Positions 18,180 through 60,695 of a stretch of 64,000 bases of DNA are shown here, in pieces. Both the position numbers and the translations under genes were made by a program. The notes under the pieces were generated by a model that saw nothing but the letters and a program-made list of their open reading frames with translations, did no database searches and had not been told where the DNA came from. The stretch's first letter is position 1. Every line of letters starts with the position of its first letter. The stretch comes from Octopus vulgaris. Its lineage: Eukaryota. The stretch lies in NCBI GenBank assembly GCA_951406725.2, contig OX597825.1, positions 74,028,001-74,092,000 of the forward strand. Reading direction: 5' to 3'.

Positions 18180-18344
18180 CTATACCTTTTTCTATTTTCT
18201 CTCCCTGTTTATTTCTGTGTTCCGCTCTGTCGACGAGCGTAGGCTCGAAACGTAAAAGACTTTCTCACTTTCCGAGCGTTAAACTAATACATCTGTTGTT
18301 TATACACCCGTCTTCGTCTTTTGTTTGTTTTGTAAATTCTCACT
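18180..18344 (+). mobile_element. PLE-derived 3' module with minimal hammerhead, ending in (TA)n
   Basis: Similar to the 3' end of the GIY-YIG element at 18622-19978; CTGTCGA-C-GAGC(GTAG)GCTC-GAAA-CGTA at 18227-18254. Confidence 0.75.
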
Positions 18345-18720
18345 ATATATATATATATATATATATATATATATATATATATATATATATATATATATAT
18401 GTATATATATATATATATATATATATATATATATATATATTTATCTATATAGATGTATATATACAAGTATATATATAGATGTATATATACATGTATATAT
18501 ATAGATGTATATATACATATATATTAGATGTATATATGTGTATATATATATAACCTAATGGAACAGAAACACCGTCGTACCTCTGTCTGTCTCTCCATCA
18601 TGTATATATATATATATATATAACGGGAAGCTTTATGAAAATAAACAAAAGACGAAGGCAGGTGGAAAACAAACGAACAATTGTATTAGTATGGCGCTCA
18701 GGAAATATAAATAAAACAAG

Positions 18721-18758
18721 TCTTTAACGTTTCGAGCCTACGCTCTTCAACAGAAAGA
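18721..18758 (-). ncRNA. Minimal type I hammerhead ribozyme (variant core)
   Basis: UCUUU-CUGUUGA-A-GAGC(GUAG)GCUC-GAAA-CGUU-AAAGA: stem I UCUUU/AAAGA, 4-bp stem II, loopless palindromic stem III (ACGU). Confidence 0.7.
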
Positions 18759-19574
18759 TACACAGAGAGAGAAAAACACAGAAAGAAGGAGAGAAAAAAA
18801 ATGCGTGCAGTAGCTAACGAATCAACATGGCGATCTGATTTCGGCCAGAGGTCAAAGATCAAACATGAGACGCGAGAGCGAAATAAGGGGAGATAATAGG
18901 GTTGATAAATGGGTTGAGGGACCAGCTAAAAGTGCGTGGGAGGGGTCTGGATGTGTGTATGTATAGGGTTGGTGTATGTATTAGTATGTATAAGGGTGTG
19001 TGTGTGTGTGTGTGTGTGTATGAGAGAGTATTAGTGCGTAAGATTGGTCTGGACGTGCGTATGTATGGGGTTGGTGTATGTATTAGTATGTATTAGTATG
19101 TATTACTACGTATTGGTATGTATAGGTGTGTGTGTGTGTGTGTGAGAGAGTATAAGTGCGTATGCGGGGTCTGGACGTGTGTATGTATAGGGTTGGTGTA
19201 AGTATTAGTATGTACTAGTATGTATTAGTACGTATTAGTATGTATTAGTTGGTGTGTGTATTAGTATGGCACATCATATGTGATGTGATGTGTAAAGTCA
19301 TGTGGTGTAGTGAGGAGAAGAGGGGAGGGGGAGAAGAGGGGGAAAGAAGGGGGGGGAAGAAGAGTGGGAGGAGAAGGGGGGAGAGGAGAGGATGGGGGAG
19401 AAGGAAGGGGATGAGGAGGATGAAGGAGGAAAGAGGGAGAGGGGGAGAGAGAAGGGGAGAGAGGGAGTGAGGGAGCAGAGGGAAGGGGAAGAGGGAGGGA
19501 GAAAGAGGGAAGAAGGGAAGGGGAGTAGGGGTGAAAGGATGAAGGACTGAAGAAGTAGGGGTCGGGGGAGAGGG

Positions 19575-19978
19575 GGGTTAGATGAGGAGGGGGGAGAGTT
19601 GAGACCAAATGGCGTATAAGAGCGAAGAGAGAAGATTAATTCCTGTTCACGGCGCAAACGGGAATCCGGATGGCCTCTGTGTAAGGACAAACCGAACACA
19701 GATAGGTGTTGCAAGGAGTGACCGGTGGAGCGGAAATGGCGTGAGACCGGTGTGTCGTTCGCAAGGTGGATGTCACGAAGGTGTTCCGCGAACCGGTCAG
19801 CCAAGCGGCGTCCCGTTTGTCCGATGTACAAGGAATTGCAGAGAGAGCAAGAGATGCAATAGATAATATTGCTGGAGGTGCAGGTGAAGGAGTGGATGAT
19901 GGGATAGGGTCGATGGTGGGTGCTAGTGAGGCGGGTGGTGTTGGAGAGGTAAGGGCAAGTGCGGCAACGTGGGCGGGA
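19575..19978 (-). pseudogene. GIY-YIG endonuclease domain of the Penelope-like element
   Basis: RCRTCPY...FTCTSSNIIYCISCSLCNSLYIGQTGRRLADRFAEH...PVSRHF...GHS...RLRREQELIFSL...PFGLN. The IIY/YIG motifs, catalytic R and E, CCHH residues and terminal GLN are typical of PLE endonucleases. Confidence 0.92.
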
Positions 19979-20469
19979 TATATATATATGTATATGTATG
20001 TATATATATATATGTGTGTGTGTGAGGGGGTGACTGTGCATATGTACATCTGCATAGTTGTATATATGTATTATGTATAACCCTAATAGAGGTAAAATGC
20101 TGCCTCTCTCTAGCAATGTATATATATATATCTATCTATACTTACTCTTACGTATACATATATAGAGATTTTTAGGAGATTCATGTCTCTATAAACACCT
20201 GTACTATATCTACATCCAATCTATAACACTTTCTTCAACACCCCGATTTATCGATCTGCAGCTTCTCCGATGTATCAATCTCCTGTTAACACACCAAGGC
20301 ATTAATCAATGGTCAGACAACTGTCTTAGTGTTTGTTAGTCACGTGATCAACTATTGAAAATGTTTCATTTCGTTCTGTTATCTTGTTTTGTACTTCACA
20401 AGAGATAAATTGTTTGGAAGACGGCGTAACATGTCATTTCTCTCTTAATTTGGGTCCGTAATCAAACCA

Positions 20470-20745
20470 GCACCGGCTATCAAGTGGTCGTGGGCACAAA
20501 CATAGACACAATACACATATCAACTATCTGTCTCTCTGTTGTCTGTTTGGTCTGTATAATATATATATAAATACATATATACGACGGGCTGCTTTCAGTT
20601 TCCGTCTACCAAATCCGCTTACAAGGCTTTGGTCGGCCCGAGGCTATAGTAGAAGACACTTGCCTAAGGTGCCATGCAGTGGGACTGAACCCGGAACCAT
20701 GTAGTTGGTAAGCAAGCAACTTACCACACAGCCACTCCTACGCCT
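20470..20745 (-). mobile_element. SINE family B variant
   Basis: Family B head and central region match. Confidence 0.85.
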
Positions 20746-57504: not shown

Positions 57505-58375
57505 GGATATGCATACATACATACACACACACAAATACACACAGAGAGACACACACAAACACACAGGCATATATATATATATACATACATACATACATAT
57601 ATACATACATATATATATATATATATACATATATACATACATACATACATATATATATATACATATATACATACATATATACATACATATATACATACAT
57701 ATATATATACATACATACATACATATATATATATACATACATATATACATACATACATATATATATATATATACATATATATATATACATGCATACATAT
57801 ATATATACATACATATATACATACATACATATATACATACATAATTATATACATATATATAAATACATACATATATAGATACATACATATATAGATACAG
57901 ACATATATACATACATACATATATACATACATATATATATATATAGATACATACATATATACATGCATACATATATACATACATATATACATACATACAT
58001 ATATATATACATACATATATATATATATATATATAGATACATACATATATAGATACATACATATATACATACATATATATATATATATACATACATATAT
58101 ATATATATATAGATACATACATATATAGATACATACATATATACATACATATATACATATATACATACATACATATATATACATACATATATATACATAC
58201 ATTCATATATATACATACATACATATATACATACATACATATATACATACATACATATATATAAACATACATATATATATATATACATACATACACACAC
58301 ACACACACACACACACACACATATATATATATATATATATATATATATATATATATATATATATATATGCACACA
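57505..58375. repeat. (TACA)n/(TA)n compound microsatellite
   Basis: Direct inspection. Confidence 0.95.
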
Positions 58376-58859
58376 CGACAACAAATACAGACACATATAT
58401 GTGTATGTAGACAAAGGAAAAGAACATTCATGGTGTTTAAGTCTACATTATATTCTGAATTATGAAATACTTTATTGAAAAATAAATACACAAATACTCA
58501 AGCATCAAGTTATTCGATAATGATTATCGCAAATGTCTGTTACTGCAGCAGAAGAGAGGAAACAGAACGACTCTAGTTTACTTTGTCATTACGTAACTCT
58601 ATTGGTAATGGTTATTTAATATATCCGGGTCTTCTTTTTTCTTTTCCTCTAATATCTTCATTAATGTATTTCTCAAATGTGTAAACAACATAAAAATCAA
58701 GTTATGCTTTTGACGTAGCATAAATATTAAAAAAGGAAGGCAAACAAATAGAATAATGCATTAATAGAATTTCACATGGCTCTCCGCCATAGAGGTTCTT
58801 ATTCGTTATGCCAAAAATAGAGCATTGCCACAATTGCAACCAGCAATAATAATAGTAAT

Positions 58860-59066
58860 AGTTTCTAGGTACAAGGTGTGAAATTTTGCGGGAATGGAAT
58901 CGTCGAATACATCGAGCATAGTGCACAATTGGTACTTATTTTATCGACCACGAAAGGTTGAAAAGCAAAGACAGTCTCGGAAGAAATTGAACTCAGAACA
59001 TAAAGACAGACGAAGTGCTGCGAAGCATTTTGCCCGACGGGCTACAGATTCTGTCAGTTCAGCGCT
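58860..59066 (-). mobile_element. Decayed family-A-related SINE
   Basis: TGGTACTTATTTTATCGACC.CGAAAGG.TGAAAAGCAAAG...GAACTCAGAAC. Confidence 0.75.
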
Positions 59067-59303
59067 CTAATAATGATGATGATGATGGTGATGCTTAATA
59101 ATAATAATGATGATAATAATAATAATAATAATAATAATAATAATGATAATAATGATGATAATAATAATGATAATAATAATAATAATAATAATAATAATAA
59201 TAATAATAATAATAATAATAATAATGATAATAATAATAATAATAATAATAATGATAATAATAATAATAATAATAATAATAATAATAATAATAATAATAAT
59301 AAT

Positions 59304-59512
59304 AACCCTTATTCAGGGACCTTTTGAGTGAGATGGCCTACTCAACATGAAGAAAAGTCCAGCTGGGCCTCGCCTTGATATGAGATCAACATATCACGCA
59401 CATATGGTTGTGATGCATGTACCCTTATTAGACAGGTAATCATGATTGGTATACTGGGCTACGTATATTTTACCCCAGTGTCACTTTGATGGCATGCACT
59501 GCTCTCTCACAC
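59304..59512 (+). mobile_element. 5'-truncated copy of the (AAT)n-inserted LINE tail
   Basis: Matches ~35530-35771 with internal deletions; long (AAT)n on both sides. Confidence 0.8.
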
Positions 59513-60540
59513 AATAATAATAATAATAATAATAATAATAATAATAATAATAATAATAATAATAATAATAATAATAATAATAAAAATAATAATAATAATA
59601 ATAATAATAATAATAATAATAATAATAATAATAATAATATTAATAATAATAAGCTAATAACAACTGAGCTAATAACTGCTATGGTTAGGGTTAGGGTTAG
59701 CGATCTCTGTCTCAAAATCGGATTCTGTCTCTATTTTGCAATTAGTAACCCTTCTCTGCAACCGTCACTCTTTACCACTCTCTCTTGCTAGCCACTTTAT
59801 TCTCTCTCTCTCTCCAGATTTTCTGCTTGTTCCTTCCTTTCGCAGTAATGTTATAACCATCACGGCAGCATTTTATGCACATTTTATTGCATAAAATAAT
59901 TGATAACGACTCAAAGTCTTGCCGTTTATTACACGAACAACAAATATTTACACATCATTACTACAATATTTACAACATTACTAGTTCTTGTCATATTTCT
60001 ACATTATCCCATCCGGCTTTCATTCTCTTATTCCAACATCTTTTCCGATGATATTGTCCTATTTTATTTGTTGTTTTAATTCTCAACAAGATGTCGTCAT
60101 GGTGGATTTCGAAGCAGCTAAAGCCAGAAATAGTAATATGTAAACATTGTGTTAAAAACCCTTCGGATAGGAAAAGCTCGTAGGACTCAAACGCTGTACT
60201 ACTGGACAAAATTAATCTTTCAAATTTCTCCATCGATTTTAGAAATTCGAAAGATTCCTGTACTACATCTACACACTATTATTTATAGCACTGTCTGCTC
60301 CGAAATCCACGGCTCCAAGACAGAATTATATTATATATATATGTATATATATATATATATATATATATTGGAAGGTTTGGAGATGATGTACAGGTATTAT
60401 ATATTAGAAGAAATGAGGTAATCAGATCGGATGGTTCATATTTATAGATATTTATTTATATATTACATTTTTTTACATATATATATCATATCATTCAGAT
60501 CATATCATTCGGATTATTAGCGCTTTAGTGTATATATATA

Positions 60541-60695
60541 GTTGAAATTTACAGAAAAACAAAGGACAAAGTCAGCTGTATGAGCAACAAGAAGGTGTAT
60601 TAGTTTGACGCTCGGGTAAGTGAGAAAGTCTTTTTTGTTTCGAGCCTACGCTCTGCAGCAGAAAGGGTTAAGAGAAAATAAACAGAGAGAGAATA
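60541..60695 (-). mobile_element. PLE 3' module with decayed hammerhead
   Basis: Minus strand CUUU-CUGCUGC-A-GAGC(GUAG)GCUC-GAAA-CAAA-AAAG at 60629-60666. Confidence 0.7.

Follow-up and report, generated by a model that had tools for sequence, protein, structure and literature searches.

Minimal hammerhead motifs of metazoan Penelope-like elements (PLEs) have a published consensus (Cervera & De la Pena 2014, PMC4209133) that includes an extra base and no stem III loop. The window analysed here, a stretch of 64,000 nucleotides (nt) of Octopus vulgaris DNA (assembly GCA_951406725.2, contig OX597825.1, positions 74,028,001 to 74,092,000, forward strand), holds five such hammerhead-like motifs in modules of a Neptune-type PLE. 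Their nearest published counterpart is the Acropora digitifera Neptune motif (PMC4209133), and the likeness is extensive: the motif lies in a pseudo-long terminal repeat (pLTR) near the 3' end of the element, behind a U-rich 5' flank, in mostly single truncated copies, and it combines a short stem I, a single base separating A9 from 10.1, a G10.1-C11.1 pair, a 4-bp stem II with a 4-nt loop, a palindrome at C15.2-G16.2 and the absence of a stem III loop. The difference lies in position 6 of the core, where uracil (U6) is the master state in the octopus, whereas the published core variant is U3-A8. An initial annotation of the window had also counted the extra base and the lack of a stem III loop among the new features; both were published earlier, and novelty is limited to U6. 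A natural pyrimidine at position 6 is also present in the A6C hammerhead of phage Bcep176 (PMC3088659; PMC7151607), which is a C in a single phage sequence, active as a monomer and rescued by Mn2+, whereas the octopus motif, known from sequence, has a U, is of the minimal kind and belongs to an animal retroelement; its copies number more than 17,000.

Uracil as the master state of position 6

With the rest of the 5' core held fixed and U, C and A counted, position 6 reads U in 17,610 copies genome-wide, C in 441 and A in 226. The A6 of the hammerhead consensus is absent from the masters of the element, whose hammerhead is filed as a variant of the motif. These counts bear out the proposal of a Penelope pLTR minimal hammerhead family whose master lacks A6, and they exclude a canonical A6 consensus for the genome. 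The proposal had allowed U or C; the first stands as the master state, while the C6 copies (2.4%) are spread over all N7 states among the 100 listed and so appear decay-like. About half of the A6 copies represent the background level, since a T>A control at position 4 gives 113 copies, and in a tree built from the flanks only, from which 13 rows of falsely U6-looking families had been dropped, A6 copies are tips dispersed through the U6 subfamilies. U6 is the master state, and C6 and most A6 copies look like decay.

Samples drawn in other ways give the same picture. A search anchored in the flanks listed 88 distinct loci, with 83 U, 2 A, 1 C and 2 unreadable (counted by eye). Position 6 reads T87 C10 A3 in an older subfamily (among 100 listed of 523) and T83 C11 A6 in copies with C17 (among 100 listed of 318). 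Copies at tandem junctions, which are likely the sources of new copies, carry U6 in 99 of 100 listed, of 194. U6 is likewise kept in lineages whose protein identity to P0001, the product of a full-length element described below, is 61-88%, partly through decay (5 of 20 regions with long protein matches).

The motif is recognized by the 17-mer GAGC-GTAG-GCTC-GAAAC, which has 21,744 exact copies in the genome and exactly five in the window, and 0 of 100 shuffles held any match. Positions and strands given in the initial annotation proved exact, as did its 7-nt cores, the single extra base after A9 (C, A, A, A and A in the five copies) and the GTH-AAAGA that follows in four of the five. The upstream YCTTT invoked for stem I is present in four of the five as well; copy 18222 has CCGCT instead and a single stem I pair. 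The features of the window, with P0001 as reference protein, are as follows.

18174..18343, + strand: 5'-truncated 3' module of the C7 subfamily with a TA array at its end (start approximate, by eye)
18222..18259, + strand: hammerhead-like motif with U6 and a damaged stem I
18344..18622, no strand: TA-rich array in which the 3' ends of two insertions meet tail to tail
18623..19978, - strand: 5'-truncated young Neptune-type copy with CxxC linker, GIY-YIG, low-complexity 3' part and pLTR module
18721..18758, - strand: hammerhead-like motif with U6, otherwise intact, young subfamily
19592..19978, - strand: GIY-YIG endonuclease fragment, equivalent to residues 837-965 of P0001
29253..29432, - strand: 5'-truncated 3' module of the A7 subfamily with a TA array at its end
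29348..29385, - strand: hammerhead-like motif with U6 and a private U4>G
31483..31694, + strand: 5'-truncated 3' module of the young subfamily, then (TA)24; 99% identity to the pLTR of the full-length element
31559..31596, + strand: hammerhead-like motif with U6, otherwise intact
31559-31563 with 31592-31596, + strand: stem I of this motif
31564-31570, + strand: its 7-nt core, followed by the extra A at 31571, stem II at 31572-31583 and the ACGU palindrome at 31587-31590
Between 31591 and 31592, + strand: predicted cut, placed by hammerhead numbering
60541..60693, - strand: older decayed 3' module with a short TA run at its end
60629..60666, - strand: decayed hammerhead-like motif with C6 and A9>C, 16.2/16.1 lost

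Apart from U6, core and stem I are intact in only two of the five copies, 18721 and 31559, and the other three are privately damaged; copy 60629, for instance, has no GU at 16.2/16.1. An Rfam scan at gathering thresholds returned no matches in the window, and descriptors built on CUGANGA would miss U6, in line with the suggestion that standard descriptors overlook this family. A shifted register with UNGAAGA as the core was considered and rejected: stem II then fails, and sister families with A6 fix the register. Also set aside were some apparent U6 families with other stems, as matches of the L136/L157 type lie within stem II of a canonical CUGAUGA hammerhead and those of the L140 type belong to another repeat. 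The former come from a repeat family (L136, L137, L147, L150, L157; about 1485-1530) that carries a canonical CUGAUGA minimal hammerhead with a long loop 2, the latter from a further family (L140, L149, L155, L158) that ends in GAAACGTA and whose stem is closed about 50 nt upstream.

Likely selection on the fold and relatives with A6

Among subfamily consensuses derived from 167 module copies, 0-1 of 21 constrained positions vary versus 44-61 of 129 flank columns (Fisher p 5e-4 to 6e-6). Variation among the U6 subfamily consensuses is confined to positions 7 and 17, apart from one tie at position 6 (at one threshold, in a cluster with four members from a sample enriched for A6). A hammerhead leaves just these two positions free, and selection on the fold therefore likely persists. 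All four bases occur at N7 (T40 A24 C21 G15 among 100 listed), and G17 occurs in 132 copies only, a background level. The remaining core features are present: C3 U4 G5, G8 A9, G12 A13 A14, A15.1-U16.1 and H17 are invariant among the subfamily consensuses.

The covariation of stems I and II, for which the initial annotation had called, was examined in 26 hand-picked U6 and A6 motifs. There, 91.8% of cells are paired, above all slid controls, seven of the eight stem I/II pairs change on both sides, and G10.1-C11.1 is present. Among old U6 copies, a few carry GGGC/GCCC or GGAC/GTCC stems and one a stem I with compensating changes. Taken at the level of sequence, the motif is likely still selected as a hammerhead fold.

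Relatives of the motif keep A6. It is present in 42 of 42 motifs of a sister family that shares stem II but has a different loop and, in stem I, G-C in place of C-G, and in 32 of 38 motifs of older relatives with GG/CC stems. Metagenome PLE loci, searched with a descriptor left open at position 6, gave 13 motifs in 10 loci among the best 80 of 491, all of them A6 and all with the extra base and the CG palindrome; shuffles gave none. As relatives keep A6, U6 is likely derived. The A6 sister families (L451-L460; L107, L205, L448) are small, share stem II and the TA-ended module, and are natural controls; no linked open reading frame (ORF) was seen within 1.5 kb of the sister loci examined. Viral contigs gave 25 pattern matches, with no relative among them. 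About 150,000 PLE-linked variants were reportedly listed by Lunse, Weinberg and Breaker in 2017, in lists that lie outside the scope of our literature search and could contain a U6 family; within titles, abstract starts and term counts of the full-text literature, no report of a U6 hammerhead family was found.

The Neptune-type element and its truncated copies

The full-length copy at L091 encodes P0001, a protein of 1,082 amino acids with a reverse transcriptase (RT), a CxxxxCxxC linker, a GIY-YIG endonuclease (EN) with CCHH and then a proline-rich stretch. RVT_1 scores E=1.4e-07 and GIY-YIG E=0.006, the latter below cut-off with its motif visible. A single ORF with RT and C-terminal GIY-YIG is the arrangement of EN+ Penelope-like elements; the CX2-5CxxC linker before the endonuclease is common also to Nematis and Naiad. 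By eye, the RT and EN of P0001 are much closer to the printed Neptune1_Ap and Neptune1_Nv rows than to the Poseidon and Nematis rows (PMC8557442 supplement). The element is a Neptune-type PLE, autonomous, young and often tandem, placed by eye against printed rows. It shares with the Neptune clade (Craig et al. 2021, PMC8557442) the order of RT, CX2-5CxxC linker and C-terminal GIY-YIG with CCHH, as well as partial tandems, inverted 5' copies, optional tails and a microsatellite bias, and differs in its non-canonical hammerhead core and in the in-frame, proline-rich low-complexity stretch after the endonuclease.

One of the window's modules had been identified as the 3' end of a GIY-YIG PLE, and this is correct: the fragment at 19978-19592 (- strand) is 100% identical to residues 837-965 of the full-length ORF, with a Pfam GIY-YIG score of E=0.0011, below the curated cut-off. 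The whole copy at 18623..19978 has 95% DNA identity to L091 over 1,389 columns. Searched against its own 2.8-Gb genome, the GIY-YIG fragment gave 150 of 150 scored matches (of 16,492 candidates) at 100% identity, so this is a very young family. An index of sequencing runs contains the stretch in 20 of 23 rows, under four organism codes, with no RNA run on record.

Twelve regions were fetched around long frames or paired matches; ten have two or more motifs, nine of these at about 4.5-kb spacing, flanking the ORF region. Partial tandems with pLTRs, another PLE feature, are represented by the 194 tandem-junction copies genome-wide. At one locus (G000:C6:117391789-117400891) three tandem junctions follow each other at intervals of about 4.47 kb, with at least three near-complete young copies in the array. 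Beyond the module, tandem copies read through a short TA run and on into the 5' untranslated region (UTR); the TA run at which insertions end is therefore internal to the element, and it matches the target. At least three TA units lie within 125 nt of position 17 in 53 of 70 distinct sampled loci, in a genome that is itself TA-rich, and in five of five window copies. The modules had been said to abut TA repeats, and all five do so at the module end, 89-103 nt past position 17, not at the hammerhead. The anole Poseidon element PAc (Frangieh et al. 2024, PMC11167929) is similar in that its insertion end lies past the cut, by 85-92 nt, and in that uncut RNA appears to be the template. PAc belongs to another clade and has a canonical core, and its start site is without target homology, whereas the TA run here matches the target.

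The 5' ends of modules at sampled loci are scattered, and several copies have inverted 5' partners or 3' tails. The short modules are ordinary 5'-truncated copies of the 4.5-kb autonomous element and no separate element, contrary to the suggestion that they spread independently. The same scatter led us to reject the idea that 5' ends are fixed at a conserved CGCCATG. Identity with non-LTR retrozymes, which are non-autonomous PLE derivatives (bioRxiv 10.64898/2026.07.22.740005), was rejected as well: the modules are truncated with scattered 5' ends, and the few two-motif tandems of 334-405 nt that recall retrozymes differ from them in having breakpoints that vary from copy to copy and are unrelated. 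These tandems (L366, L367, L368, L380, L381; 5 of 20 regions), whose motif spacing is that given above, look like internal deletions rather than an amplified retrozyme unit, and are natural substrates for dimer formation.

Two further observations concern the element itself. An 11-mer containing CACGTG lies just past the internal TA run (L091:3720-3730; L364-L383) in all fetched subfamilies, where it also served as a search anchor, and is a candidate promoter element. L091:3481-8200 contains one sense and 26 antisense GTRAG splice-donor words, with several strong ones in the 5' UTR, and the antisense excess is probably a consequence of the C/T-rich sense strand.

Other repeats share the window. 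A decayed transposon region at about 29830-31440 (+ strand), with broken DDE-type frames and inverted similar ends, is one that we take from its translated motifs to be Tc1/mariner-like. Two similar stretches of about 105 nt, at about 29560-29670 and 31740-31850, each lie directly 3' of a (TA)n array and are possibly ends of another microsatellite-associated repeat. A short frame at about 60730-60830 (+ strand) has a CxxC...H zinc-finger-like motif, presumably akin to the C-terminus of a long interspersed nuclear element of RTE/CR1 type, and is followed by a 30-nt tandem duplication at 60835-60896.

Predicted cleavage of the U6 core

We tentatively favor the reading that the motif is a PLE minimal hammerhead with U6 in its masters, still selected and folding, that cuts slowly or rarely. 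Given such attenuation, the element would copy mostly uncut RNA; by analogy with other PLEs, GIY-YIG would nick (TA)n, and reverse transcription would start at the internal TA run and usually stop early. Cleavage would need two copies pairing through ACGU, probably plus the element's own protein, and U6 would lower its rate partly through lost core contacts and perhaps also by way of a modeled helix that closes the monomer.

Published mutagenesis makes low activity the expectation, and U6 probably lowers cleavage. In a type III hammerhead, every single or double mutant of the CUGA turn has low activity, the C3/G8 swap excepted (PMC9901934), the natural A6C is slow (PMC3088659, PMC7151607), and PLE minimal hammerheads are weak even with A6 (PMC4209133). 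For another PLE, that of the anole, uncut RNA as template and protein-assisted cleavage have been shown: cleavage needs protein, and insertion does not need cleavage (PMC11167929).

The more than 17,000 whole-motif copies must derive from RNA uncut at that motif, which they retain entire. No pile-up of insertion ends was found at the predicted cut site, where 5 insertions start exactly, a number not clearly above the 2 at a matched control position. Starts within -1..+2 of the cut are seen at 13 of 66 distinct loci among those listed (4 of 29 plus 9 of 37, by eye), where A/TA microhomology with the target can explain them, and in 2 of 5 cases in the A6 sister family. In folding predictions, a U4-G5-U6 / A15.1-C15.2-G16.2 helix closes the U6 core and hides the ACGU palindrome, the mean probability of the G5-C15.2 pair being 0.80 in 66 U6 copies versus 0.13 in 19 natural A6 copies from this family. 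Eight motifs had unremarkable fold z-scores (-1.56 to 0.73).

Several points weigh against an attenuated but selected hammerhead. Most loci behind the subfamily-consensus test were collected via the motif and deliberately enriched for A6, which inflates core conservation, although the flank-anchored list shows the same motif as the motif-anchored sample. Covariation is mainly between families, most of them A6, and stem II shows no variation inside the main U6 subfamilies. With about 45% of flank columns variable, a constant position 6 does not reach significance by itself. On the module tree U6 takes two changes, which leaves a single origin neither shown nor ruled out. The closing helix is weak in G7 copies (probability 0.26), covariation for it was looked for and none was found, and C15.2 is buried in 9 of 10 A6 sister copies too, by different pairings; with no covariation and no uniqueness to U6, the helix was rejected as a U6-specific explanation. 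Finally, on these genomic data slow cleavage cannot be told from none or from normal cleavage.

It is possible, if rather unlikely, that the motif is catalytically dead and kept for another job, as an RT landmark on RNA or as a DNA element of an internal pLTR promoter. Such a view would sit well with the near-essential A6 of mutagenesis (PMC9901934), with the scarcity of insertions starting at the cut, with Naiad elements that thrive without canonical hammerheads (PMC8557442), and with the helix just described, by which, according to the predictions, U6 would lengthen stem II into a rod. A rod, however, does not need C3, U16.1 or the lack of a G17 subfamily, which are catalytic rules, and it shows no compensatory change. 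In the anole element, moreover, RNA truncated at +20, without the 5' half of the hammerhead, is still a template (PMC11167929), which means that RT does not depend on the motif as a landmark in that element.

We consider it distinctly improbable that U6 is fully tolerated, cleaving about like other PLE minimal hammerheads once dimerized, protein-bound or supplied with another metal ion. Long lineage divergence has left all remaining catalytic positions, the ACGU palindrome and both stems in place, A6C is largely rescued by Mn2+ or high Mg2+ (PMC7151607), and PLE hammerheads can be protein-assisted (PMC11167929); yet no CUGA double mutant beyond the swap mentioned above restores activity (PMC9901934), all 13 motifs from metagenome loci have A6, and so do the 12 rows compared in full, and others compared in part, from a published alignment of 56 motifs, though that alignment was assembled with an A6 descriptor (PMC4209133). 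A neutral relic, hitchhiking inside a successful element, is already disfavored and very unlikely: successive subfamilies from few masters, conservation of other module patches and the bias of the consensus sample towards intact motifs would all allow it, but the near absence of variation at constrained positions, against about 45% of flank columns, the agreement of the flank-anchored list and retention of the motif down to about 61% protein identity speak against it. Hardly credible at all is retention of U6 for a 3' splice site, a pyrimidine tract plus AG inside the core, since despite a long pyrimidine tract upstream of the motif and an intron end that overlaps the hammerhead in Drosophila Penelope (PMC4209133), the only sense-strand GTRAG lies inside the ORF and the motif has none upstream of it, pyrimidines are abundant along the entire sense strand (68% C+T in the ORF), and A6 sister families have the same tract, with YAG only in A7 copies.

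A bolder version of events is unlikely but worth stating. A6>U may be an evolved off-switch or dimmer, its core helix over the palindrome protecting full-length RNA and helping the element to reach more than 20,000 copies versus tens to hundreds in decayed A6 sisters; or this may be the first natural U6 hammerhead, cleaving with help from the RT protein.

The role of hammerheads in PLEs is debated: cutting of tandem precursors has been proposed, insertion in vitro proceeds without it in one element, and mere passengers have been suggested. This genome offers a natural experiment, with an amplifying lineage that carries a supposedly crippling core change, A6 copies in identical flanks, and A6 sister families. 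The U6 change likely turns cutting down, yet the U6 element far outnumbers its normal-core relatives. Should U6 prove inactive, the element would do without cleavage in vivo while keeping the fold; should it cleave, descriptors would be too strict about the hammerhead consensus and would be overlooking whole families. With a lineage-wide core variant in an active Neptune-type element, natural controls become available for testing what PLE hammerheads do.

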